Origin: Bacteroidales bacterium UBA1219
GTDB lineage: Bacteria; Bacteroidota; Bacteroidia; Bacteroidales; P3
Assembly (NCBI GenBank): GCA_002309295.1
Contig: DBXF01000013.1
Span: forward strand, 11,143 to 75,142
DNA length: 64,000 nt
Direction: 5' to 3'
The notes under the pieces were generated by a model. It had not been told where the DNA came from and ran no database searches. It saw only the letters and a program-made list of their open reading frames with translations. Below, in pieces: positions 2 to 26,976 of this stretch. How positions within the stretch are numbered: position 1 is the first letter of the stretch; the number at the start of each line of letters is the position of its first letter. The position numbers and the translations under genes are program-made.

Positions 2-514
2 ACTGCCATACTCGACGGCAACGCCAACGAGATAATGGTGCTTAACGACTTTTTCGAAACCGACATCAACGACAATACTCGCGGATACATACGCTATCCA
101 CTCTACGACCTCGCCGAAGGCACACACACGCTTACGCTCAAAGCATGGAACGTGTACAACTACTCCGCTTCGGCTACAATATCCTTTGTGGTGAGAAAAG
201 GCAGTCCCGAGATAGGACGTTTCTTCGCCTACCCCAATCCCGCACGAGAAAAAACTACAATTCAGATAGAGCACAACAGTTCGTCGAAACCCACTGCCGC
301 TGAGGTTTACATTTTCGACGCCGCCGGGAGGATGGTGAAAAAGATAACACCGATCATAAGCGACGGTTCCTCTGTGGTTGGACATATCGAATGGGATTTC
401 CGCAACGAGTCGGGGAGCAAAGTCGCCAAGGGCGTTTATTACCTGCGTGCCATAGTAACCTTCGACAACGGCGAGCAGGACACCAAATCGACAAAACTGA
501 TTTATCACAGATAA
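2..514 (+). CDS. porU: C-terminal part of a T9SS-associated protein, probably sortase PorU (5' end outside window)
   Basis: The frame is open from the window edge. The protein ends in a T9SS type-A C-terminal sorting domain (YPNPAREKTTIQIEH...KGVYYLRAIV). It lies directly upstream of porV, the usual Bacteroidota arrangement. Confidence 0.55.
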   Translation, partial: TAILDGNANEIMVLNDFFETDINDNTRGYIRYPLYDLAEGTHTLTLKAWNVYNYSASATISFVVRKGSPEIGRFFAYPNPAREKTTIQIEHNSSSKPTAAEVYIFDAAGRMVKKITPIISDGSSVVGHIEWDFRNESGSKVAKGVYYLRAIVTFDNGEQDTKSTKLIYHR

Positions 515-14582: not shown

Positions 14583-15458
14583 TCACGCTTGGTTTTTGAT
14601 TTTGCAGGATTTCAGCGTCTTACGGTAAATGACAAAGATTACAACAAAAAATATCAGATTGCTGAAATAGGAAATGTCCACATACGACTGCCACCAATAT
14701 TCGGGGGAATCGACTATTTGGGGCTCGGTGAAAAATTCTAACAGCAGAGAGGGCAAATAGAAATCGACAAGATAGCCCAATACAGCAACTGCTAGGACAA
14801 CAATCAGATTAATCCGTACCGAAGGTCGTTTTCTTACCAGCTGGTAAACGACTCCTATTGTTAGCAGGAGCAACATAAAATGCACAACGGCGTTCAAAAG
14901 CATCGGATGTACCAGAAGCCTGACATTATAGGCAATGGTACATACCAAAAAGAATACATAACCGAAAGCGCTGTAGAGCAACATCCCGCCATAAAAACAA
15001 CGCGCTATGCTGTCGGGAGTCCGTCTTTCAGCACAGTAACGCCAGCACAAATAAGCCAAAGTAAGCAGCGCAACGACAATGTTTTTCCATTTGTTCAGCT
15101 CACTCAAAAATTGTTGGGAGAGACCATATTTATACAGATTGTCGGACAAAAGGTAGGAGTCCATCAGATTTGTTCGAACAAACATTTGAAAAAAACTCAG
15201 CAGGTACACAAGCACAAACACCCCCACCACATGGAACCACTTGATATTCAAAAAGAAGGGTTTGCGAAATAAGAAAAAAATGACAGCAAGTTCGAGCAAT
15301 GCACTCCCCGCCACCACCATAACGGGGTCCATAACGCTATACAAGTCATAGATAAAATAAAAGCACTGTCCCCAAATGGCACCGAACAGCCAGTAGGACA
15401 GTATTCCGAAAAGGAAGTAAAGGTAACGTACGTTTTCTTTAGTGAAGCTATAGGTCAT
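14583..15458 (-). CDS. Hypothetical polytopic membrane protein (about 8 TM segments)
   Basis: 291 aa, hydrophobic throughout, no recognisable motif. AT-richer than the neighbouring genes. Confidence 0.6.
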   Translation of the reverse strand: MTYSFTKENVRYLYFLFGILSYWLFGAIWGQCFYFIYDLYSVMDPVMVVAGSALLELAVIFFLFRKPFFLNIKWFHVVGVFVLVYLLSFFQMFVRTNLMDSYLLSDNLYKYGLSQQFLSELNKWKNIVVALLTLAYLCWRYCAERRTPDSIARCFYGGMLLYSAFGYVFFLVCTIAYNVRLLVHPMLLNAVVHFMLLLLTIGVVYQLVRKRPSVRINLIVVLAVAVLGYLVDFYLPSLLLEFFTEPQIVDSPEYWWQSYVDISYFSNLIFFVVIFVIYRKTLKSCKIKNQA

Positions 15459-15514
15459 ATTTCTGTAATGGGGTTATATGTTGTTTATAGGGACTTCCAA
15501 TTTGCGATTTTCGT

Positions 15515-16057
15515 TTAGAAATGCAACGACAGGCCAATCTGCGTGGGCGAGACATTGAGTTTCAGCTGTGTGGTTATCGGTTCACGGTGCCCGATGCCGC
15601 TGTTGTAGGAGTCGCGCACTTTGTTCAGTTTGTGTTTTCCCCTGATGGCGAGGATGGTGGTAGGAACCAACATGCAGACTCCCACCCCACAGGCCCATAC
15701 ACCCACATTTGCTCCTATAAAACCGAAGGTCCCCACAATCCCTACTTCACTCTTGTCGATACATATCATTCCCCAACCCAGACCTATTAGCGTTCCGCCA
15801 CCGACAACCAGACCAGCCGACAGTCCCCCGAATATCAACGACTTACGGTAGAGCGACTTTCCTTTGTCGTAAAGTTCGAACATCTCGTCGGAAAAGAGGT
15901 TGTGCAACTCGTCGTTGGAGATGCGCGTCTTGGACTCGTCGGAAGTGTAGTAATATCCCATGCCTTTCCTCGCGATGGTCTCTATGCTGTCGTTCTGTGC
16001 AAACAGGCTACACGAAATGGCCATTACGGCAATCAGAAAAATAGATACCTTTTTCAT
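15515..16057 (-). CDS. Hypothetical secreted/membrane protein with Gly-rich TM hairpin
   Basis: Start trimmed to MKKVSIFLIAVMAISCSLFAQ, which is a signal peptide. The C-terminal half has two Gly-rich hydrophobic segments. Confidence 0.55.
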   Translation of the reverse strand: MKKVSIFLIAVMAISCSLFAQNDSIETIARKGMGYYYTSDESKTRISNDELHNLFSDEMFELYDKGKSLYRKSLIFGGLSAGLVVGGGTLIGLGWGMICIDKSEVGIVGTFGFIGANVGVWACGVGVCMLVPTTILAIRGKHKLNKVRDSYNSGIGHREPITTQLKLNVSPTQIGLSLHF

Positions 16058-16100
16058 TGCATTGTTAGTTATTTCGTTTATAATCAATTTATTATAGAAA

Positions 16101-16547
16101 TTAGTCGGCATCGGCGGGAATTATGTCGGCAGAAATTGTATAGGTAAGTTTGCCGTAGCACGGACCGCTGGGATCTCCTTTGGGAAATGACTCGGTTTTC
16201 TCTTCGTAGCTGTATGCCGAAGATTTGAAATTGTACGGACTGAGACCAATAGTGTCGGTTTTATGAAAAACCACGGTGTCGCCAGTGACGAAAATAAATG
16301 ACACACTGTCGCCGAAACGGAATCTGAAAACTCTTTCGCAAGATTCTTTCGAGGCAAATCCCATGCCGCAGTCTCCATCAACAATTTTCTCGGTGCCATC
16401 GGGAATTGTTACATTAATATTTTGTGAAATAACTGTTACCTCGAACCCGGAGTTGTTTTTTATTACATTTTCCTCAGTATATCCCGGGTCGCAGGAGAAC
16501 AAAACGGCCGATATGGCCAACACCGTTAAAATCGATTTTAGTTTCAT
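16101..16547 (-). CDS. Hypothetical small lipoprotein
   Basis: Signal peptide with lipobox (LFSC). 148 aa with no recognisable domain. Confidence 0.55.
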   Translation of the reverse strand: MKLKSILTVLAISAVLFSCDPGYTEENVIKNNSGFEVTVISQNINVTIPDGTEKIVDGDCGMGFASKESCERVFRFRFGDSVSFIFVTGDTVVFHKTDTIGLSPYNFKSSAYSYEEKTESFPKGDPSGPCYGKLTYTISADIIPADAD

Positions 16548-16754
16548 AATATAAATCAGGCGGACTTCATTGTTTTACTTTTTTTCGTTGCCATCTCCTC
16601 AAAATTTGCCGAAGTCCTTTTAGGACAAAATCGGAAGAAACGACACTGCAAAATTACAGCATTTTTTCGAATAAAACAACTTTTCAAAAGAAAAAATTTA
16701 GGGGGGGAGTAATCAATTGATAATTAATAATTTACAATTAACAATTGACAATTA

Positions 16755-16784
16755 GTTCGGAACTCGGAGAGCGGAGTTCGGAAC
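16755..16784 (+). repeat. Copy of the TTCGGAA repeat family (GTTCGGAACTCGGAGAGCGGAGTTCGGAAC)
   Basis: Shares the exact 14-mer GTTCGGAACTCGGA with 14336-14349. Shares 18 of 19 nt of GGAGAGCGRAGTTCGGAAC with 14327-14345. Confidence 0.85.
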
Positions 16785-16872
16785 GAATTTGGAGTTTTGA
16801 GTTGGGAGTTTGTAGGTAAACGATGCGGGGGTTCAACACTTCGACAAGCTCAGTGACCGCACCCACCGCACT

Positions 16873-16940
16873 TTCACTTCTTCACATCTTCACACCTTCA
16901 CATCTTCACATCACTATTCACTATTCACTATTCACTATTC
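16873..16940. repeat. Short tandem repeats: (TTCACNYC)x5 followed by (ACTATTC)x4
   Basis: Direct reading. The tract ends at, and overlaps, the stop codon (16942-16944) of the last operon gene. Confidence 0.9.
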
Positions 16941-16941
16941 A

Positions 16942-18444
16942 CTAAATATTATCATAAATCTCCTGAATTATCTTGTTTATACCCAGAAATTCGGCGCATG
17001 TTATTATTCCTCCGATGGTTACGCCGAGTATGCCGTGCGAGTTGATGTTCTGTCCGGTCATAAAGAGGTTGGGGATTTTGGTGCGTTGCGACACGTAGGT
17101 CTGGCTGGGGAAGTTTTTGTCGCGGATTATGCCGTACATCGAGCCTTCGTGGGTGGCGGTGTAGTCCTGATAGGTGAGCGGTGACGAGGTGTAGTACGAC
17201 TCTATGCAGCTGCGTATGCCGGGAAACGATTTTTCGAGGCTGGCAAGCAACAGCTCGGCCTTCTGCTCCTTGAAATCGAGGTAGTCCTGTCCGCGGTGGC
17301 CCACACGGGTGCCTTCCCAACGTCGCACCTCGTCGAAATGCATGTAGCCGATAAGCTCGGCGCTCTGGGCATAGACGGGGTCTTTTTGGTGGCACTGGTG
17401 CATAAAGAGGTAGCTCTGCGGCCAGCGGGCTATGTCGTAGTCGTTGGATTTCCACACGTCGGGCAGCTCGTAGAAATAGTAGTTGTAGTTGAGGTACGGA
17501 GTGGCGTTTTCCTTGAACTTGATATAAACGGTGAAGTTGGAGATGGTGTTTTCGAGGTTCGACACACGTTCGCGGTAGGCCTTGCGGATGATGTGCGAGT
17601 CTATCTTGCTGAGGGTGGCGTGCGGGTGGACGTTGGAGACGAAATAGTCGGCTTCCACCACCTCGCCAGTAGTGAGGCGCACACCGGTGGCGTGGTAATC
17701 GTCGCAGAGGAATTTCTCCACCTCGGCGTTGGTACGCACCTTGCCACCGAATTTCTCAATGGATTTTGCCAAGGAATGGGCTATGGTGTCGCTGCCGCCG
17801 ATAATACGGAACGCACTCTGTATGTAGAAGTTATGAATCAGCGCATGGACGTAGGTGGGAGTCTTGTCCTTGACTCCGGCGTAGAGCGGCAGATTGCCCG
17901 CCAGAACGTTCTGCAGCTTTAGATTTGACGTGGATGAGGCTATGAAGTCGTTGATGCTGGTTTTGATGTAGTCGGCTTCGATAAATATGTTGTTGTTTAT
18001 CTTGCGGAGGTTGTAGAGCGGCGAAGCATCGGCAATTTCGCGCACACGCGAGAGGTAGGTCTCTATGTCGGAACGGTTGTCGGGGAACTGCTGTGAGAGG
18101 GTGTCGGCGAAACGCTCGTAGCCGTTGGCGAACTTAAATGTCTCGCCGGCAAGGGAGATGACGTCGTAGCCCTCGGTGTCGAGTTGCTGCAGTGGCACTG
18201 TGTCGAGCAGTCCGAGGTAGTTCCAGAAACGGTGCAGTATCTGGTTTTCGAGCATGCTGCCAATGTAGTGCATGCCTGTGTCGAATTTCACGCCGCCACG
18301 GCGGAAAGTCTGCAGGCACCCTCCTATCTGGGCGTTTTTTTCGAGGATGGTTACATCGTATCCGTTCTTGGAAAGCACGTAACCGCACACCAGTCCTCCG
18401 AGGCCGCTGCCCACTATCACTACTCTGTTCTTATTCATCGGCAT
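16942..18444 (-). CDS. FAD/NAD(P)-dependent oxidoreductase, phytoene-desaturase-like
   Basis: N-terminal dinucleotide fold VVIVGSGLGGLVCGYVL...EKN..IGG. 500 aa, and overlaps the upstream gene by 14 nt. Confidence 0.75.
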   Translation of the reverse strand: MPMNKNRVVIVGSGLGGLVCGYVLSKNGYDVTILEKNAQIGGCLQTFRRGGVKFDTGMHYIGSMLENQILHRFWNYLGLLDTVPLQQLDTEGYDVISLAGETFKFANGYERFADTLSQQFPDNRSDIETYLSRVREIADASPLYNLRKINNNIFIEADYIKTSINDFIASSTSNLKLQNVLAGNLPLYAGVKDKTPTYVHALIHNFYIQSAFRIIGGSDTIAHSLAKSIEKFGGKVRTNAEVEKFLCDDYHATGVRLTTGEVVEADYFVSNVHPHATLSKIDSHIIRKAYRERVSNLENTISNFTVYIKFKENATPYLNYNYYFYELPDVWKSNDYDIARWPQSYLFMHQCHQKDPVYAQSAELIGYMHFDEVRRWEGTRVGHRGQDYLDFKEQKAELLLASLEKSFPGIRSCIESYYTSSPLTYQDYTATHEGSMYGIIRDKNFPSQTYVSQRTKIPNLFMTGQNINSHGILGVTIGGIITCAEFLGINKIIQEIYDNI

Positions 18445-21400
18445 TGGGGTGTTCGTATTTCAAATTTTCCGGCACGCTGACGCAGTTGGCGGCTATGTCC
18501 ACCAAATCGGCGTCGCTGTCGGTGGCCGTGATTTGCAGTTTTTTCTTCACCAAGGCGGCAAGCAGTGCAAACTCGCCCTGTCCGCAGTTGTCGATACGGA
18601 ATTCGCCGTTGTCGGGCAGTGCGGCGATGGCCTCGCGGTAGTTGCCGTTGCGACGCAGGTTCTGGCGTGCACGGCGTTCTATGTCGCGACCTTTATAAAT
18701 ATAGTTGTGCAGCACGAGGTCTGCGTAGTAGTCGGCGGTCTCGGTATCGCGGCACAGCTGTCCGTATTGCTCCACATAGTATTGCCGCATGGCTTTGGCA
18801 ACGGTGTTGGCGTCGCCTTCCATAAGCGGATTTTCGTTGGTAATACGTGGCAAAATCTGCACATCCACTCGTCCTTTGCGCAGCATAAACTCCTGTTTCG
18901 GGAAAACATGTCCGATGCCGTGGGTGACGAGCGGCAGCACGTCCACACCAAGTTTTTTGGCCAAATGGAATGCCCCTTTGTGGAAACGCAGTATGTCGCA
19001 AGTCTCGGAACGGGTGCCTTCGGGGAAGATAAGCACCGAATAGCCATTGCGCAGAGCCTTTTCAACCTGTTTCTCGTTCTCCTCAAGTCCGTTGGCCACG
19101 GGATAGAAATCGGCGTAACGTATTATCCAGCCGTAGAACGGGCTGTTCCACACCCATTTGTTTGTCAGACAGATGATTTTGGGGTTGAGGGCAAGCGTAT
19201 AAAGCAGGTCGAGGTGCGACTGGTGGTTGCAGGTGATGATGGCGGGCTTTTCGAAAGTCTCGCCGGCGGTGTTGTGCACATGCGCCTTAACTCCCGGCAT
19301 CCAACGCACGCAGGTGCGCAGAAGCCCACATAAACATTTGTGGTAAAACAACTTATGCTTTGGCGTTTTGCCTCCGATGGTAAGCACGAAAAATCCCAAA
19401 ATAGAGAGGAATATCGAGAAAACGAAGAAAACCGTAAAGGCGTAGATGGTTTTCAGAAGGTTGAGCAGGGTTATCGGCATCAGGCGGTCGTGGCCGCGTT
19501 TTTTGGTGAGCCAGCGGTAGATGAGCGGCGGGAAAATGTAGGCCATCAGCACCACGCAGAACATACCGATTATCGTTACTTCGGCCAGCGAGTGCATGGC
19601 AGGGTGTTTGGCAATAATCAGCGAGCCGATGCCGATAAACATAATGGTGGCCGACAGCAGCACCGAGTTTTTGTACGAGGCAAGCATCTTGCGGCGGTAG
19701 GTGTATTCGTACATCATCCCTTCGGTGACGAAAATGGTGTAGTCGTCGCCCTGCCCGAAAATAAAGGTGGCAAGTATGATGTTGATTATGTTGAACCGTA
19801 TGTCGAAGATGTTCATTATGCCCAAAATCCAAATCCAGCCCACCGCCAGCGGCAGAAACGACAACAGGCTGAGTTCCAGCCGTCCGAACGAGATGGTGAG
19901 GAACAGGAAAACGATGAACCCGCAGATGTAAAGCACGTAGTCGAAATCGTCGGAGAGGGCGTCGACCATCTTGTCCACAATGCTGGTGTTGTCCATGGTA
20001 AAGACGGCATCGTCCACATTGCCAAGACGTTGCGACACAGCCTCGCGATGGTTGCTCTCCATCAGGGTGTAAACCATGCAGCGGTCGGGGTTGCTGCAGA
20101 GGTAATTACTTGCAAACGAGTTGATTATCGGTTCAAAATAGGTATATTCGTGTGTTTCGTGGCTTTTGCCGATGATGTCGAAGAAAGGTTGCAAGGCTCC
20201 TTTGCTGTAGCCGAGTTTCGCGGCCTCGGCCTCGACGTTGCGCACAAGGTCGTCGCGGCGGGTGCTCCAGAAAGCCTCCCACTGCTCCACACGTTGTTTC
20301 TGCATCTGTTGCGAAGGCACAAAACCGCCAATCCCCGACACCTTGACCACGGTGCTGTCGGCGGCCATACTTTCGATGACGGGCATCGCCGCCTCGTAGC
20401 CGCGCAGAGCCTCCTCCATATCCTTGCCCTCGGCCACACAGTACACCGACGGCACGCCGCTCTCGGTCTGGGCTATCAACTTGTCGAGCTTCACCCGCTG
20501 GTCGGGAGTCATGTAGTTGATTTTACTCATGTCCGACTCGAAAGCCGTCTGTCGGCTGAAATAATACAACGGTATGGTTATCAGCACTATGGCAAGGACG
20601 AATATCTTGTTCTGTTCGAAACGGCGGTCGGCCACCTTGCCGAAGACAAGTCTTGTGGCTGAGCGGTCCTGCTTGTGGAACAGCGTTTTACGGAACAGAT
20701 GCGGCAAAAAGACCAGTACAAAGAGTATCGTCCCGACAAGGAGCAGAGCGGCGAAGAGCCCTAGGTCTTTCATGGCGTCGGAACTGATGAATACAAGGCT
20801 CAGGAAGGCACCCACGGTGGTGAGGTTGCCCGTAACGAGTGGCTCAATTATGTCCTTGATAGTCTGTTCCTTGCTGTATCCCTGCTGGTAATGGGCAAGG
20901 AAATGCAAGGGGTAATTCACTGCAATTCCGACAATTATGGACCCCACCCCTATCGCTATCACCGACACGGTGCCTTTGAACAGGGCGAGGAACGCCAGTC
21001 CGAACAATGCGCCGAAAGTAATGGAGAACACAATGATTATCAACGCTCTGGCATCGCGGAAGAAGTACATCAGCAGGGCAAGGATGAGCACCAGCGCAAG
21101 GATGGTGGAGATGATGCTGTCGGTTTTGATACGGTCGGCGTTCTCCACCGAAATCACGGCGGCACCGATATAATCCACTTTCACCGTGCCTCCGAACTCA
21201 TTTTCAACCTCGTGGGCAATCTTATCTATCTGTTGCACAAGCTTTTTGTTGCCCGAAGTCTCGCTCACGGGGTATTTGGAGGTGACAGCCATTATCGCCT
21301 CGGTGCCCTCCTTGTTGAAAACGTATCCGTCGATGATTTCGTAACTGTCGCCCATGGGGTTTCCGCCCCCAAGTTGCGGAAGCTTAGGCGATACGAAGCC

Positions 21401-21931
21401 CAGCGGGTCGTTCACGATTATCTTTTTGGCCACACCGCCGGCGGGCGAGAGAAGCACCTGCTTGTCGGCGGCAAGTGCCTGTGCTATCTTCTGCGGAGCG
21501 AGAAGGCTGTCGATACGGGCATAGTCGGCGCTGTCGAGGTAGTACGGCATATTGGCCTGCACGAATTTCGTCAGTTCGAAAACCTTTTCCTCGTTCACCT
21601 GATAGAAAATGTCGGTGGTATGCTCCGCCACGTCGGGACTTTCGAGACGTGCGGCCATGCGGTCCACGGCGTCCATGATTTTCTCCTGGTCGGGTTCGCC
21701 CTGCGTGGCATACACGTTTATCATTATCTTATTGGCCGCCCCAATGTTCTGATAGGCATAATTTTGGCGGTTGTCGTGTCCCTCCTGCGGCAAAAAACGG
21801 CTGATGTCCTCAACGAAATCGAGTCGCAGCAGACACAGGGCCATCAAAGCGAGCAATACCGTCAGCACAACGACCATCAAGGGATGACGTTTGTCGAAAA
21901 AGGCATATAGGCGGAGCAGTATATTTCTCAC
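18431..21931 (-). CDS. Fusion protein: MMPL/RND-like exporter + lysophospholipid acyltransferase + truncated class I methyltransferase-like tail
   Basis: About 800 aa of multi-TM exporter, then LPLAT motifs NHQSHLD and FPEGTR. The last ~67 aa resemble SAM-MT motifs I-II (IDNCGQGEF...ITATDSD) and then the protein stops. Confidence 0.7.
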   Translation of the reverse strand: MRNILLRLYAFFDKRHPLMVVVLTVLLALMALCLLRLDFVEDISRFLPQEGHDNRQNYAYQNIGAANKIMINVYATQGEPDQEKIMDAVDRMAARLESPDVAEHTTDIFYQVNEEKVFELTKFVQANMPYYLDSADYARIDSLLAPQKIAQALAADKQVLLSPAGGVAKKIIVNDPLGFVSPKLPQLGGGNPMGDSYEIIDGYVFNKEGTEAIMAVTSKYPVSETSGNKKLVQQIDKIAHEVENEFGGTVKVDYIGAAVISVENADRIKTDSIISTILALVLILALLMYFFRDARALIIIVFSITFGALFGLAFLALFKGTVSVIAIGVGSIIVGIAVNYPLHFLAHYQQGYSKEQTIKDIIEPLVTGNLTTVGAFLSLVFISSDAMKDLGLFAALLLVGTILFVLVFLPHLFRKTLFHKQDRSATRLVFGKVADRRFEQNKIFVLAIVLITIPLYYFSRQTAFESDMSKINYMTPDQRVKLDKLIAQTESGVPSVYCVAEGKDMEEALRGYEAAMPVIESMAADSTVVKVSGIGGFVPSQQMQKQRVEQWEAFWSTRRDDLVRNVEAEAAKLGYSKGALQPFFDIIGKSHETHEYTYFEPIINSFASNYLCSNPDRCMVYTLMESNHREAVSQRLGNVDDAVFTMDNTSIVDKMVDALSDDFDYVLYICGFIVFLFLTISFGRLELSLLSFLPLAVGWIWILGIMNIFDIRFNIINIILATFIFGQGDDYTIFVTEGMMYEYTYRRKMLASYKNSVLLSATIMFIGIGSLIIAKHPAMHSLAEVTIIGMFCVVLMAYIFPPLIYRWLTKKRGHDRLMPITLLNLLKTIYAFTVFFVFSIFLSILGFFVLTIGGKTPKHKLFYHKCLCGLLRTCVRWMPGVKAHVHNTAGETFEKPAIITCNHQSHLDLLYTLALNPKIICLTNKWVWNSPFYGWIIRYADFYPVANGLEENEKQVEKALRNGYSVLIFPEGTRSETCDILRFHKGAFHLAKKLGVDVLPLVTHGIGHVFPKQEFMLRKGRVDVQILPRITNENPLMEGDANTVAKAMRQYYVEQYGQLCRDTETADYYADLVLHNYIYKGRDIERRARQNLRRNGNYREAIAALPDNGEFRIDNCGQGEFALLAALVKKKLQITATDSDADLVDIAANCVSVPENLKYEHPNADE

Positions 21932-22665
21932 TTTTTCAGCAATTTAATCAGTTTTCGGATTCCCATCGACGGATAGCCGTAAACCACGGCCAGCAGGCAG
22001 AGCACTGTGTTTAGCACGCTGATACGTGCAAAGTCGGCGGTGGGCCGGAAATGGCTCACGCGCTCCTCCTGCGGGGGGTAGTAAACGTTTATGGGACAGG
22101 ACTTTATCTTCACATCGCGCCAAGCGCAACGCACAAGTATCTCAAGTTCAGCCTCGTAGCGGTTGTTCAGCGGGTTGTGTCGACCGATCTTTTTCAGAGG
22201 ATACACACGAAAACCCGTCTGTGTGTCGGGCAGACGGCGGATGGTCTGCACCGTGAACCAGAAATTGGAGAAACGGTTGGCAAAGCCGTTTTTCGAAGGC
22301 ATATTGGGGTTGTCGAACTTGCGGCTGCCCACCACAAGGCTCCCTTCGTCGGCCGAATAGCAGTCGAGCAACGTGGGTATGTCCGAAGCTCGGTGCTGAC
22401 CGTCGGAGTCGAGGGTTACGGCGGTGTCGAAACCCTTTTGCAGAGCGGCTTTGAAGCCTTGACGCAGGGCATAGCCTTTGCCGCGGTTCTTGGGGTAGGA
22501 AACAACTGTGACGCTATCGCCCAAAGTACGGAGAATGCCCTCGGTGCCGTCGGTGGAGCCGTCGTTTACAACAATGATGTCGGACACGAAACTGCGCACA
22601 TCGTCAACGACGGCGGGCAATGTGGCCGCGTTGTTGTATGTGGGGATGATGGCACAGACTTTCAT
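21928..22665 (-). CDS. Family 2 glycosyltransferase
   Basis: AIIPTYNNA...VVNDGSTDGT...NRGKG signature. Has a 4-nt overlap with the downstream gene. Confidence 0.85.
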   Translation of the reverse strand: MKVCAIIPTYNNAATLPAVVDDVRSFVSDIIVVNDGSTDGTEGILRTLGDSVTVVSYPKNRGKGYALRQGFKAALQKGFDTAVTLDSDGQHRASDIPTLLDCYSADEGSLVVGSRKFDNPNMPSKNGFANRFSNFWFTVQTIRRLPDTQTGFRVYPLKKIGRHNPLNNRYEAELEILVRCAWRDVKIKSCPINVYYPPQEERVSHFRPTADFARISVLNTVLCLLAVVYGYPSMGIRKLIKLLKK

Positions 22666-22677
22666 TGTGGCGGGTTG

Positions 22678-23049
22678 TCAGTGTTTCTCGCAAAGCAGGC
22701 TCGCTTTAACGACAATCGTTTCGGGGTCGGAAATGGTGGTCTTGGCGGAAAACAGGGTTTCGCTTTGCGCAACAAGCTGTATGTCAAAGGTAAACACCTT
22801 GCCTTCGGCCGGAGTCATAAGGTTCAGGAATTTCATGTTTTTCACCGTCGGAATGCGGATTTCGCCGCCTACGACCTCGGTAACCAACTGACGGATAATC
22901 TCCAAGGTGCAGACGCCCGGAACGATGGGGTTGTCGGGGAAATGCGCCTGGAAAATGACGTGGTCCATGCGGAACACTATTTCGCGACGAATGTGCAGCG
23001 AGTCAGTATCGTGGGTGCCGACAATGGTGTAAAAACTCCCGTCTATCAT
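22678..23049 (-). CDS. FabZ/FabA-type hotdog 3-hydroxyacyl-ACP dehydratase
   Basis: 123 aa with the catalytic-His motif HFPDNPIVPGV. Confidence 0.75.
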   Translation of the reverse strand: MIDGSFYTIVGTHDTDSLHIRREIVFRMDHVIFQAHFPDNPIVPGVCTLEIIRQLVTEVVGGEIRIPTVKNMKFLNLMTPAEGKVFTFDIQLVAQSETLFSAKTTISDPETIVVKASLLCEKH

Positions 23050-23054
23050 AGCAG

Positions 23055-23690
23055 CTATTTAAGGTTAAACATTTTATCGTCAATAGAGGCATTCACTTTG
23101 TGGTTGCTGAAAGTGATGGTGGTGCTGTCGCCCTCCTTCTCGTTCATAAACATTTTCACGGCCACCATCTTTTGTTTGTCCAAAGTCAGTTCCAGATGGT
23201 TGAAAAAGACTTTCAAACGGCGGTTGGCGGGAGTCAGCTTGATCCAATAGGCGTTGGCGCCGACATAGAACTCACTCTTGAAATTCTTGCCGTCGTCGAG
23301 CTCCTTGCCGCTCACCACACCGGTTATCAGCGCAGCCATCTGACGGTACATGCGTCCGTCTTTGCCCTGCTCTTTGCCATCAGCGTCGGTGACTTTAACT
23401 TTGGCACCTTCCATAACTACCACCGACACAGTGGGTTTAGTGTATTCCCATCGCAACGATGACGGTTTTCTGAAATACATAACACCCTCACTGACAGATA
23501 CTTCGTTAAAGAGTGCCGATTTTTTCTCCTGTCGGAAATCGCATTGCATCGTCTGGAAATTGTCGTTCATCGCCGAAAGCAAGGCTTTTTTTTCGGCATC
23601 GGAAACGGCTTTGAAACCAGCAGGTTGGGCCATGGAGCACAGCGTTGCGGCAAGCATGACCATAAGGGAAAAAAGCCTTGTCTTTTTCAT
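23055..23690 (-). CDS. LolA-like outer-membrane lipoprotein carrier family protein
   Basis: Signal peptide plus a LolA-like pattern (F.Q.K......S.G......P..LRWEY..P). Confidence 0.7.
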   Translation of the reverse strand: MKKTRLFSLMVMLAATLCSMAQPAGFKAVSDAEKKALLSAMNDNFQTMQCDFRQEKKSALFNEVSVSEGVMYFRKPSSLRWEYTKPTVSVVVMEGAKVKVTDADGKEQGKDGRMYRQMAALITGVVSGKELDDGKNFKSEFYVGANAYWIKLTPANRRLKVFFNHLELTLDKQKMVAVKMFMNEKEGDSTTITFSNHKVNASIDDKMFNLK

Positions 23691-23696
23691 AACACT

Positions 23697-24044
23697 TTAT
23701 TTTAAAACAATGAAATACATGCCGGCAATGATAAGAGCCACACCAAGCCATCGTATCAAGGGGATACTTTCGCCGAAAACTGCAGAAGCCAGAATCATGC
23801 TGAAAATAAAGCTGGCACCTGACAGGGGGTGTATCACCGAAAGGTCATGATTTTTAAGTAGATACATCCATAACACAGTAGCTGCAAACATTGCGCCGCC
23901 AGCTGCCAAAAGCCACCAGTTGGTGAACACACGCCACGACCATTCAAAACGGTCCGAAAGAGTGGCCTTTTTCATAAACACCTGCCCGAGCGCAAGACAC
24001 AACGACTGCAGTAGGCTCCATAATATCAATATAACTTTAGACAT
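23697..24044 (-). CDS. Small (115 aa) EamA/SMR-like membrane protein
   Basis: Four hydrophobic helices in an EamA half-domain-like arrangement. Overlaps the upstream KS gene by 8 nt. Confidence 0.5.
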   Translation of the reverse strand: MSKVILILWSLLQSLCLALGQVFMKKATLSDRFEWSWRVFTNWWLLAAGGAMFAATVLWMYLLKNHDLSVIHPLSGASFIFSMILASAVFGESIPLIRWLGVALIIAGMYFIVLK

Positions 24045-26286
24045 TTGAAAGTAGTGCTAATGAATACTCTAAATCTTTGAAATGATTAACCACGAGTATG
24101 TTACGCGGTTTGTCGATATTTTTATCACTATTATTCGTTAAAAACGAAGGAATTTTGCCGTTTTTCAGACAAACGGCCGCAGCGTAGATTCCCATGGCCG
24201 GCATGGTGAACCCTTCGCCGAAAAGATGTTTGTAACGTAGCACCGCAGCCTGTGGCAACATACGGCAGAAATCATCGTAATGACGGTTGTTATCGGCATT
24301 TTCGTCCTTGCCCGTCATCACCGCTGCGATGTCGGAACGTTGCAGTCCGTGCCTTTGCAGCATTGCGTCGAGGGTGCACTGCAACTCCTCTTCGCTGGGA
24401 CGGAAAAACAGCTGTGTGTCAAGCAGTTCGCACCAGGCAGCTTCCGTCTGGCGGTTTTCCAGAAACATCGTCAAAGCCGTTTCGCCGGCGAAGGTGCCGT
24501 CCCAGAAGTCGACCTTGTCCAGAAGGTCGTAGTAGTCGGGCGTCATCTCGTCGTGACCGCCCACCAGAGCAGTTTTAATCTTGCCCAGCTTGAACTGCAG
24601 GAAAGCGTCCTGCAAGGCACTTTCGAACGACACCCCGCGTTGCGAGTAGGTGCAGTTGTAGCCGTGGCAGTGCAGGTTAAGCGCCACCTGCGAACTGATG
24701 GTGTTGTGGGTGGACTGCATGAAATAGGTCGGCGTGAGCAGCTGCTCGCCGTCCACTACCATGGCGCGGAGGAATTTCTCGGTGTTTTCGATACATCCCA
24801 AGCCCGTACCGGTGATGATGGCGTCGATGGCCGAGCCGTCGGCGGTAGGCAGCGCCGAGAGTGCCGTAGTGAGAGCGCGTTTCAGCACCGCTCCCATGCG
24901 GCGGGCCGCTTTCGGGTCGATAAACTGCTTATAATCAGGCGACAGAGCCCTGACATATTTCTCGTTGTAGAAAATCGGATTTTCAAACCATTCCTCGCCA
25001 AGAGGCTGTTGCACACTTATTTGCGAAGCTCCACCGATGAACACCCTGCGTTTTTCGTCGTAAACGCTTGACGTATGTGTCTGTTTTTCAGGCTGGTATT
25101 TGCCAAAAATCAGCGACGAGTCGTTGCCACCGAAACCGAAGGAGTTGGTCATCACATGGGTGAGCGAAACGCCAGTTTTCAGGAATTTCTGCGGCACCAC
25201 AGGCACGTCAGCCATAGGCGTCTCGAAACCGAGGCTCGGCGGGATGAAGCCGTGTTGCATGGCAAGTATGGAAATCACCGCCTCCACGCTGCCCGCGGCA
25301 CTTGTGCAGTGTCCCGTAAAGGCTTTGGTGGAGGAGATTGGCGGGTAGTCGTTGCCGAACACCCGCAGTATGGCGTTGCCCTCGCTGGAGTCGTTGTTTT
25401 GCGTGCCAGTGCCGTGCGCGTTGATGTAGTCGATGTCAGATGGTTGCAGACCGCTGTCGGCAAGAGCCTGTGTCATAGCCAGATACGCCCCTTCTCCTTC
25501 CGGCGAGGTGGCCGTCTGGTGGAAAGCGTCGCAGCTGTTGGCGTAGCCTTCGAGGGTGCAGAGAATCTCCGCCCCGCGGGCCTTGGCCTCGCTCTCGCGT
25601 TCTATCACGAGGAAAGCGGCGCCTTCGCCGAGGTTAAGGCCGTTGCGACCATCGTCGAAGGGACGGCAGCGCTCGCGGTCGAGAATCATCAGGGTGTTGA
25701 AACCGTTGAGGTGGAACTTGCTCAGACACTCGGTGCCGCCCACCACGGCTTTGTCGGCCCTGCCGCTCTTGATGAGGTTGGCACCGAGGATGATGGCGTT
25801 GGAGGCCGAGGAACAGGCGGTGGAGATGGTGGTGGTCTGCGAGAAACGGCCGAAGAAATCGGCAGCGAAAGCAGTCCCTGCACCGCAGTCGTGGGCCGCG
25901 ATGTAGGCCACATCTTTGTCGTCGAAGAAACTGAGGTACAGCTGTTCGCTTTTCTCCATGCCGCCCACGGTGGTGCCGTTGATCAGCGCCACACGGCCGC
26001 TGTCGGGCTGCAGGTGCGACTGCTGCAAGGCCTCGCGCATGGCCATAAGAGAGAGGAGAGGCGTGCGGGTGGTTACCACGTCGGCAGGGATGTCCATACG
26101 CTGGCGCATCTCGGCTTCGGTCATCGGCACCTCGCACACGGGAATGTCGGTATGAGCGGTGCTGAGGTACCTTACGGCACCCACACCGGAACGGCAGTGC
26201 AACAGCGCGTCGAGCGTGGACTCAACGCCCACACCGATGCCCGTAACGATACCCATCCCCGTTACTACAATCGCGTCTCCCATCAA
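24037..26286 (-). CDS. Fused beta-ketoacyl synthase + chain-length-factor-like (KS-CLF) protein
   Basis: The first half has the complete Cys-His-His triad (TISTACSSASNAI, DAFHQTA, INAHGTGT). The second half is thiolase-fold-like but lacks the active-site Cys. Confidence 0.8.
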   Translation of the reverse strand: MMGDAIVVTGMGIVTGIGVGVESTLDALLHCRSGVGAVRYLSTAHTDIPVCEVPMTEAEMRQRMDIPADVVTTRTPLLSLMAMREALQQSHLQPDSGRVALINGTTVGGMEKSEQLYLSFFDDKDVAYIAAHDCGAGTAFAADFFGRFSQTTTISTACSSASNAIILGANLIKSGRADKAVVGGTECLSKFHLNGFNTLMILDRERCRPFDDGRNGLNLGEGAAFLVIERESEAKARGAEILCTLEGYANSCDAFHQTATSPEGEGAYLAMTQALADSGLQPSDIDYINAHGTGTQNNDSSEGNAILRVFGNDYPPISSTKAFTGHCTSAAGSVEAVISILAMQHGFIPPSLGFETPMADVPVVPQKFLKTGVSLTHVMTNSFGFGGNDSSLIFGKYQPEKQTHTSSVYDEKRRVFIGGASQISVQQPLGEEWFENPIFYNEKYVRALSPDYKQFIDPKAARRMGAVLKRALTTALSALPTADGSAIDAIITGTGLGCIENTEKFLRAMVVDGEQLLTPTYFMQSTHNTISSQVALNLHCHGYNCTYSQRGVSFESALQDAFLQFKLGKIKTALVGGHDEMTPDYYDLLDKVDFWDGTFAGETALTMFLENRQTEAAWCELLDTQLFFRPSEEELQCTLDAMLQRHGLQRSDIAAVMTGKDENADNNRHYDDFCRMLPQAAVLRYKHLFGEGFTMPAMGIYAAAVCLKNGKIPSFLTNNSDKNIDKPRNILVVNHFKDLEYSLALLSNV

Positions 26287-26296
26287 AAGAAAAGGC

Positions 26297-26554
26297 TTAT
26301 TTTGTACGGTGAGCCTGGATGTATTCGGCCATCACTCTTACCGACTTGAATACGTCCTTGCCTTCGGCGGCTGAGTTCAGCTTGATGCCGTAGTTCTTCT
26401 CCATCAGCACTATGAGTTCCAGCGCGTCGATGGAGTCGAGACCCAGACCTTCGCCAAAAAGAGGAGCGTTTTCGTCGATGTCCTCAGGTTTCATGTCTTC
26501 GAGGTTGAGCACCTCAATTATCTGTTTCTTAAGCTCTAATATCAGTTCTTCCAT
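26297..26554 (-). CDS. Acyl carrier protein
   Basis: 85 aa with the phosphopantetheine attachment motif LGLDSIDALEL. Confidence 0.9.
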   Translation of the reverse strand: MEELILELKKQIIEVLNLEDMKPEDIDENAPLFGEGLGLDSIDALELIVLMEKNYGIKLNSAAEGKDVFKSVRVMAEYIQAHRTK

Positions 26555-26591: not shown

Positions 26592-26599
26592 CAAATATA
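26592..26599 (-). promoter_or_regulatory. -7 promoter box (TATATTTG on minus strand) for the ACP-led operon
   Basis: Plus strand reads CAAATATA, in the same extended context (TCGTATATTTGCA) as the serS promoter. Lies 38 nt upstream of the ACP ATG. Confidence 0.55.
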
Positions 26600-26891: not shown

Positions 26892-26976
26892 GCCCCTTAG
26901 GGGCGTAATGGTTGGGGGGGGGATTTACTAACCGGAGGTTATCACCTCCGGCTGTATTATTGCGCCCTTACAGGGC
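26892..26976. other. Three consecutive GC-rich hairpins with a G9 homopolymer between the first two
   Basis: GCCCCttaGGGGC (26892-26904), G9 (26914-26922), CCGGAGGTtatcACCTCCGG (26932-26951), GCCCTtacAGGGC (26964-26976). Confidence 0.8.

Follow-up and report, generated by a model that had tools for sequence, protein, structure and literature searches.

An eight-gene Bacteroidales operon as the probable part of a flexirubin-type aryl-polyene gene cluster dispersed over several loci

We analyzed an eight-gene operon within a 64,000-nucleotide stretch of the draft genome of Bacteroidales bacterium UBA1219 (GenBank assembly GCA_002309295.1, contig DBXF01000013.1, positions 11,143 to 75,142), hereafter the window, and propose that it very probably forms a single transcription unit within a flexirubin-type aryl-polyene (APE) cluster that has been split up in this genus into at least three loci. 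A first-pass annotation of the window, made from the sequence alone, had placed the operon in the aryl-polyene/flexirubin family and described it as a reduced architecture with missing genes and unusual fusions. The family placement is borne out by a lipid carrier that passes the LolA2_flexi model, an acyl carrier protein (ACP) that matches NF006617 and not AcpP, a ketosynthase (KS) that stays under the FabF cut-off, and a gene order shared with known clusters, whereas the points presented as novel, namely a reduced architecture, an unknown starter, and odd fusions, do not hold up against the whole genome and its relatives.

The operon comprises eight codirectional minus-strand open reading frames (ORFs) at window positions 16942-26554 (ORF coordinates), and in the order from the ACP to the CrtI-like gene its junctions are a 10-nt gap, an 8-nt overlap, gaps of 6, 5, and 12 nt, and overlaps of 4 and 14 nt. 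Gene number, strand, domains (by Pfam and NCBIfam), and junctions all agree with the first-pass description, the motifs it quoted (LGLDSID, HFPDNPIVPGV, NHQSHLD, and FPEGTR) are all found in the translations, and the operon itself indeed contains no ligase, ketoreductase (KR), thioesterase (TE), or ammonia-lyase. In order of transcription, its features are:

26592..26599, minus strand: putative Bacteroidetes-type -7 promoter box TATATTTG, inside CGTATATTTGCA, 37 nt upstream of the ACP start codon
26297..26554, minus strand: ACP, 85 aa, with the LGLDSID serine site (PF00550, E=1e-9)
24037-26286, minus strand: fusion of KS and chain-length factor (CLF), whole ORF, 749 aa, with a full KS at residues 5-354
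25072..26286, minus strand: ApeO-like KS half of the fusion, approximately residues 1-405 (PF00109/PF02801)
24037..25071, minus strand: ApeC-like, CLF-like half of the fusion, residues 406-749 (PF13723 at 452-611)
23697..24044, minus strand: half-size EamA/SMR-like membrane protein, ArnE/ArnF-like, 115 aa (PF00892, 35.5 bits)
23055..23690, minus strand: LolA2 periplasmic lipid carrier of the flexirubin-cluster type, 211 aa (NF053544; PF03548, 82.5 bits)
22678..23049, minus strand: hot-dog dehydratase (DH) of the FabZ/FabA fold, 123 aa (PF07977, 27.2 bits)
21928..22665, minus strand: GT2 glycosyltransferase of the polyprenyl-phosphate sugar synthase type, in an ApeJ-like slot, 245 aa (PF00535, 81.5 bits)
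18431..21931, minus strand: fusion of an ApeM-like MMPL/RND exporter with an ApeD-like LPLAT acyltransferase, 1166 aa (PF03176 and PF01553)
16942..18444, minus strand: CrtI/CrtD-family flavoprotein, the conserved last gene of the cluster, 500 aa (PF01593/PF13450)

Remaining pathway genes and the split of the cluster

A tblastn search of the complete draft assembly (2.61 Mb in 95 contigs, 94% complete, 3% contamination) with the window proteins as queries located two further KS genes lying 6 kb apart on another contig, C42, where they belong to an eleven-gene minus-strand block at C42:17610-27817:

Gene 1, minus strand: FlxA tyrosine ammonia-lyase (TAL; NF053541, 825.6 bits, cut-off 700)
Gene 2, minus strand: FlxB ketoreductase of the short-chain dehydrogenase/reductase family (NF053542, 401.9 bits, cut-off 340)
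Gene 3, minus strand: KS405, a FabB-like, ApeR-like KS, 405 aa
Genes 4-5, minus strand: proteins of 307 aa (secreted) and 154 aa (membrane), neither matching Pfam or NCBIfam
Gene 6, minus strand: LpxL-like acyltransferase
Gene 7, minus strand: FlxJ-family methyltransferase (NF053543, 601.6 bits, cut-off 560)
Gene 8, minus strand: DH137, a hot-dog dehydratase, 137 aa
Gene 9, minus strand: 4HBT thioesterase
Gene 10, minus strand: KS398, 398 aa
Gene 11, minus strand: x215, 215 aa (no Pfam or NCBIfam match)

A third contig, C11, encodes at positions 14878-16182 a PaaK-type ligase that is the FlxY equivalog (NF053551, 705.4 bits, cut-off 520), followed by an LPLAT-like gene. The genome thus encodes, outside the window operon, all four of the enzymes in question (ammonia-lyase, aryl-acid ligase, ketoreductase, and thioesterase), and the genome-wide search that the first-pass annotation had suggested for the last three of these functions returned FlxY on C11 and FlxB and the 4HBT thioesterase on C42. 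Together with FlxA, FlxJ, a second DH, and two KS genes on C42, these finds do not support calling the architecture reduced; nor does the view that the starter unit and the pattern of reduction escape inference hold up, given that FlxA, FlxY, and FlxB are encoded and that the C42 genes are contiguous with the ACP gene in relatives. Within the C42 block, x215 has no significant BLASTP similarity to the CLF half of the window fusion, and the sole indication of a CLF-like nature is a weak PDB match to the actinorhodin CLF (E=0.004). The 307-aa and 154-aa genes, at C42:22899-24327 between KS405 and the LpxL-like acyltransferase, have no match in G001 or in other relatives, where the counterparts of KS405 and the LpxL-like gene adjoin; the 307-aa gene also occurs in G004, and the pair appears to have been inserted into the cluster recently.

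The relationship between the window operon and the C42 block emerges from a comparison with 80 loci fetched by the KS-CLF protein (L labels; G labels denote genomes, with G000 for the present one). In L003, L005, L020, L023, L026, and L034 the genes form a single block with small gaps, which runs from TAL through KR, KS, acyltransferase and methyltransferase (in either order), DH, TE, KS, and x215 to ACP, KS-CLF fusion, EamA-like protein, LolA, DH, GT2, exporter/acyltransferase, and CrtI-like flavoprotein. The exceptions are an unmatched TE in L003 and L005, a sequence that stops after LolA in L023, and in L034 missing matches for the EamA-like protein, LolA, and DH, together with an acyltransferase-only match; L017 has the same gene order, but no FlxJ homolog was detected in it. 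The order from ACP to the CrtI-like gene is common to the flexirubin-type loci of Flavobacterium, Arenibacter, and Myroides and to many Bacteroidales metagenome-assembled genomes (MAGs). Of 36 testable loci, a script placed the x215 gene directly upstream of the ACP gene in 30, and visual inspection added three; it is exactly at this x215/ACP junction that the window cluster starts and the C42 cluster ends.

Genomes of the same genus carry the same break. The arrangement ligA-hemW-ACP...CrtI of the window recurs in G003 and G004, G004 further has the RNaseG-FlxA...x215-p272 arrangement of C42, and in G001, a more distant genome, the two halves are embedded in contigs of 70 kb and 144 kb. These arrangements show that the split is not an assembly artifact; it is real and shared within the genus. 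Both halves were matched in G001, G003, G004, and G005, and neither in G002, where the two marker genes searched, FlxJ and KS-CLF, both went unmatched. The dispersal extends to genes that follow the cluster elsewhere: in L003, L007, L016, L021, and L026 the cluster is directly followed by a gene for a B12-binding radical-SAM protein, which shares 80-87% identity with the copy in this genome, and by a 120-aa ORF, with a BD-FAE esterase and FlxY next in line at most of these loci. In the present genome this run is scattered over C83:19361-20683 and C11:11085-12351 and 14878-17330, which indicates that the ancestral block has been dispersed to at least three, perhaps four, places.

Family evidence and layout of the window operon

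At the level of curated cut-offs, the ACP, KS, and dehydratase all fail the housekeeping models, which excludes ordinary type II fatty-acid synthesis (FAS II) at that level. The ACP passes NF006617 (92.1 bits, cut-off 70) and fails the housekeeping AcpP model TIGR00517 (33.7 bits, cut-off 70.45), and by tblastn it is the one cluster-type ACP in the whole genome, with no tandem pair. The KS half scores 328 bits against the FabF equivalog, under its cut-off of 493.75, and the 123-aa dehydratase, whose position is conserved in relatives, reaches only 29.2 bits against the FabZ equivalog, with a cut-off of 155.15. As the first-pass annotation had read it, the fusion joins a complete KS to a CLF-like half lacking the active-site cysteine: the N-terminal half contains the Cys (TACSS), His (HGTGT), and His (GHCTS) motifs, and profile-profile alignment of the C-terminal half on it (hhalign, probability 95.9%) replaces these residues by Gly, Gly, and Glu, respectively, marking that half as catalytically dead and CLF-like. 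PDB matches of the N-terminal half include the ApeO chains 6qsp_A and 7f28_B, and the best PDB match of the C-terminal half is the Acinetobacter CLF AbApeC (7f28_A, E=1e-5; chain identities from PMC8358021), so that the 749-aa protein corresponds to a covalent ApeO-ApeC pair.

The fusions regarded as unusual are recurrent features of this cluster family. The KS-CLF protein has more than 7,900 full-length homologs, fused and unfused forms both occur, and in the Flavobacterium locus L044 KS and CLF are two overlapping genes. Likewise, a single tblastn high-scoring segment pair spans both domains of the MMPL-LPLAT protein in 16 related loci, those of Flavobacterium and Arenibacter among them, and four loci have an acyltransferase-only gene; by NCBIfam the 1166-aa protein also matches HAE3/HpnN-like and AGP acyltransferase models. 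The flavoprotein, which had been listed as an oddity, has homologs after the exporter gene in 18 related loci, in some of them as a pair of tandem paralogs, and scores 101 bits against crtI_fam, under the cut-off of 238.

Among the carrier and anchoring genes, the LolA-like protein passes the LolA2_flexi equivalog model NF053544 (160.4 bits, cut-off 125), and lolA2 has been found only in flexirubin-type loci (De Smet et al., PMC11885536). The best NCBIfam matches of the GT2 are AglJ, PpgS, dolichyl-phosphate hexose transferase, and ArnC, all under cut-off, and the EamA-like protein has weak matches to ArnE (35.2 bits) and ArnF, both also under cut-off. This half-protein is the sole lineage-specific piece of the operon: in the slot after KS-CLF it is found in 19 Bacteroidales loci, whereas an ArnD-family polysaccharide deacetylase occupies the slot in 12 other loci, mostly Flavobacteriia (e.g., L044:12252-13016), and the two are mutually exclusive, never occurring together in one locus. 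Seen alongside the polyprenyl-phosphate-type GT2, their alternation is reminiscent of the Arn and Flm pathways of lipid A aminosugar modification and hints at a polyprenyl-phosphate sugar step.

Each half of the cluster has its own -7 box, and the 12-mer CGTATATTTGCA around the window box is also present upstream of flxA on C42. With 55 occurrences in the genome against ~0.3 expected by chance, the 12-mer and its -7 box are the organism's strong general consensus for what we predict to be promoters and not a cluster-specific signal, and its presence at both halves was rejected as a mark of their co-regulation.

The flanks of the operon contain several further elements. Just downstream of hemW, within the 512-bp spacer ahead of the putative ACP promoter, window positions 26892-26976 contain three hairpins rich in GC and a homopolymer of 9 bases (C9 on the operon coding strand). 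Right after the stop codon of the CrtI-like gene, positions 16700-16941 hold short tandem repeats, with four copies of GTGAATA followed by five GTGAAGNT-like units and then by TTCCGAA-type repeats and a C7 run. Three minus-strand ORFs of 148, 198, and 291 aa lie downstream at 14583-16547, in an islet more AT-rich than the cluster; none has a Pfam or NCBIfam match, and those of 148 and 198 aa, searched in relatives, have no match beside the cluster. An empty-site check of the serS-hemW interval in same-genus genomes, aimed at a modular insertion of the operon, found the gene order unconserved in G001, G002, and G005.

Proposed pathway, product, and competing explanations

In light of these assignments, we propose that the window operon supplies the dedicated ACP, the covalently joined KS-CLF elongation pair, one dehydratase, the CrtI-like flavoprotein, and an anchoring and export set made up of the GT2, the ArnE/F-like small membrane protein, the LPLAT fused to the MMPL/RND exporter, and LolA2. 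FlxA from C42 would convert tyrosine to 4-coumarate by deamination, and FlxY from C11 would then activate it, a starter chemistry proposed on the strength of the FlxA and FlxY biochemistry known from Chitinophaga pinensis (PMC3992019). Loaded onto the window ACP, the starter would be extended with malonyl units by the fused KS-CLF, the KS398/x215 pair, and the FabB-like KS405, with keto reduction by FlxB and dehydration by both hot-dog dehydratases at each extension and ring methylation by FlxJ. The acyl chain would finally be transferred onto a glyco- or phospholipid anchor and carried to the outer membrane by the MMPL exporter and LolA2.

The nature of that end product turns on the dialkylresorcinol (dar) genes. 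In the 94%-complete genome, there is no PF14399 match and no tblastn match for Flavobacterium DarA; the sole PF08541 match, expected for DarB, is a FabH-like gene on C36, with only a weak FabH match by tblastn; and NF053545, the DarG model, has no match. (NF053546 and NF053547 are violacein models and were set aside as irrelevant.) As a positive control, the same approach found DarB (PF08541) and DarA (BtrH_N with DUF4872) inside the Flavobacterium cluster L044. Some Bacteroidales and Tannerella MAG clusters do adjoin dar genes (both DarA and DarB at L006, L030, and L031, DarA only at L007 and L041), so both dar-containing and dar-less types exist in the order, whereas most contiguous Bacteroidales relatives have none within 10 kb. 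With some Bacteroidales loci carrying them, the absence here is a lineage feature, subject to the 94% completeness of the draft. The product is therefore likely to be a membrane-anchored APE-lipid, and an APE-lipid rather than a dialkylresorcinol ester, as in true flexirubin, is the most likely end product suggested by the gene content. The nearest chemical precedent for a product lacking a dialkylresorcinol, the APE-lipid of Xenorhabdus, consists of an aryl-polyene acyl chain esterified to a GalNAc-phosphate-glycerol lipid, and roles have been proposed there for the acyltransferase ApeD, the glycosyl/acyltransferase ApeJ, the RND exporter ApeM, and the LolA-like carrier ApeL (bioRxiv 10.1101/2020.12.19.423268). 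The window operon has a counterpart of each of these four proteins, which is why we propose an APE-lipid pathway.

A more specific and tentative reading, which we regard as rather less probable than not being the case, is that dar-less Bacteroidales clusters make an as yet undescribed aryl-polyene glycolipid, unlike both flexirubin and the Xenorhabdus APE-lipids, with a head group supplied via a polyprenyl-phosphate sugar route. It may draw support from the similarity of the GT2 to PpgS, AglJ, and ArnC, from that of the EamA-like protein to the ArnE/F flippase, and from the ArnD-family deacetylase found in the same slot elsewhere. If so, part of the assembly would proceed at the periplasmic side of the membrane, as aminosugar modification of lipid A does, and the dispersal over at least three loci would show that the pathway is kept without a need for clustering. 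The literature searched contained neither a chemical structure nor genetics for any Bacteroidales product, in agreement with the earlier remark that the product is uncharacterized.

Several observations weigh against a single dispersed pathway of the ApeO-ApeC type. Outside the genus co-occurrence of the two halves is imperfect: G009 and G016 have the KS and no FlxJ match, and G018 shows the reverse. The joint working of the three loci is deduced from synteny in relatives and from co-occurrence within the genus, not from direct linkage. Furthermore, the N-terminal KS half matches FabF structures (211 bits) slightly better than ApeO (172-180 bits), so that its assignment to the ApeO family rests on context and on the failed FabF cut-off. 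It is also conceivable, at a low probability, that the operon is a self-contained reduced pathway in which its ACP, KS-CLF, and DH, with a housekeeping FabG, make a non-aryl polyunsaturated or conjugated acyl chain, and its own acyltransferase, GT2, and exporter place that chain in the outer membrane independently of C42. The operon's own putative promoter box and its physical separation from the other loci in all four same-genus genomes that carry the cluster are compatible with this, as is the non-aryl conjugated C26:5 acyl chain found among the Xenorhabdus APE-lipids and thought to be made by similar enzymes (bioRxiv 10.1101/2020.12.19.423268). Such independence is, however, hard to reconcile with the KS398/x215 pair immediately before the ACP in 30-33 of 36 related loci, with the whole TAL-to-x215 set that precedes the ACP in relatives with enough upstream sequence, or with the joint matching of both halves in G001, G003, G004, and G005 and of neither marker gene in G002; moreover, the C42 enzymes would also need the genome's only cluster-type ACP.

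A marginally lower probability attaches to a true flexirubin, an aryl-polyene ester of dialkylresorcinol, with darA and darB in an unassembled part of the genome. The draft is 94% complete, C. pinensis has its dar genes at a separate locus (PMC3992019), and DarA and/or DarB adjoin some Bacteroidales clusters (L006, L007, L030, L031, and L041); the failure of every dar search in this genome, where the lone PF08541 protein is the FabH-like one on C36 and neither PF14399, a DarA tblastn match, nor DarG was found, the success of the L044 control for both DarA and DarB, and the dar-less surroundings of most contiguous Bacteroidales relatives all argue for the APE-lipid instead. Least of all, with a negligible probability, could the operon belong to ordinary fatty-acid or lipid A metabolism as a set of FabF, AcpP, FabZ, and LpxL-type housekeeping genes. 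The KS, DH, and ACP do belong to FAS II superfamilies and the best PDB matches of the KS are FabF structures, but the FabF (328/493.75), AcpP (33.7/70.45), and FabZ (29.2/155.15) equivalog cut-offs are all failed, separate FabF/FabH-type genes exist on C72 and C36, and the context of LolA2, FlxA, FlxB, FlxJ, and FlxY is flexirubin specific. The APE/flexirubin assignment holds, and a dispersed flexirubin-type APE cluster remains the best explanation of the operon.

Significance and comparison with known systems

Aryl-polyene clusters are often flagged in gut, rumen, and oral Bacteroidales, with links to colonization and disease that are by association only. Our results add a caution to such surveys: a cluster that looks reduced in one window may be a complete pathway distributed over several loci, which single-locus tools would under-call or mis-type. 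They also provide a parts list for the dar-less Bacteroidales type, namely FlxA, FlxY, FlxB, FlxJ, two KS/CLF pairs, a FabB-like KS, LolA2, a GT2 with an ArnE/F-like protein, the MMPL-LPLAT fusion, and a CrtI-like enzyme. The interest that remains lies in this dar-less type, in the genus-wide dispersal of the present cluster, and in the alternation of the EamA-like protein with the deacetylase.

The aryl-polyene core set of Grammbitter et al. 2020 consists of KS, ACP, CLF, DH, KR, and transporter, and all are found here: ApeO/ApeR-type KS, ACP, CLF, two DH, KR, and an RND/MMPL transporter, where the KR is FlxB on C42, outside the window operon and contiguous with the ACP in relatives. Of the stricter flexirubin set, FlxA and FlxY (both outside the window) and LolA2 are present, and darA, darB, and darG were not found in the 94%-complete draft. 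The flexirubin clusters of Flavobacterium johnsoniae (Fjoh_1073-1111) and C. pinensis share the same equivalog-level FlxA, FlxB, FlxJ, FlxY, and LolA2, and in C. pinensis flxA-flxY and darAB, the biochemistry of FlxA and FlxY, and the distribution of flx and dar genes over more than one locus have been described (Schoner et al. 2014, PMC3992019). In contrast to these clusters, DarA, DarB, and DarG are absent here and the pathway would operate without a dialkylresorcinol partner. Loci of Flavobacterium, Arenibacter, and Myroides show the same order of ACP, KS, CLF, LolA, DH, GT2, exporter/acyltransferase, and CrtI-like gene; relative to the flavobacterial loci, LolB2 is undetectable here, the polysaccharide deacetylase, outer-membrane beta-barrel, and ABC-2 genes are missing, the ArnE/F-like EamA half-protein takes the deacetylase slot, and KS and CLF are fused where L044 has two overlapping genes.

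The proteobacterial ape clusters of Escherichia coli CFT073, Xenorhabdus doucetiae, and Acinetobacter baumannii have, as here, a type II polyketide synthase with a KS-CLF pair (ApeO-ApeC), FabB-like KS (ApeR-like), KR, two DH, methyltransferase, and thioesterase, and the same GT2 (ApeJ), LPLAT (ApeD), RND exporter (ApeM), and LolA-like carrier (ApeL), likewise without dialkylresorcinol. They differ from the present cluster in the starter, which in Xenorhabdus is 4-hydroxybenzoate, loaded by ApeH, whereas here it would come from tyrosine by TAL and the PaaK-type ligase. It is a 4-hydroxyphenyl starter that Xenorhabdus elongates (bioRxiv 10.1101/2020.12.19.423268). The present cluster further has one ACP where the ape clusters have the tandem ApeE/ApeF, and its KS-CLF and exporter-acyltransferase proteins are fused; its additions are a second KS/CLF-like pair, a CrtI-like flavoprotein, and an LpxL-like acyltransferase. 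Closer in taxonomy, flexirubin-like or arylpolyene clusters have been reported, by genome mining only, in the BVU_1014 region of Bacteroides vulgatus (PMC5850320), as pBGC-12 of Bacteroides xylanisolvens (PMC12940132), and in oral Prevotella (PMC13455363), and a flexirubin "gene cluster cloud" spans five of the six Bacteroidetes classes analyzed (PMC9248904). Judged by gene content and not by sequence comparison, these antiSMASH "arylpolyene" clusters of gut and oral Bacteroidales apparently belong to the same family as the cluster described here, which differs from them in being dispersed over at least three loci in its genus.

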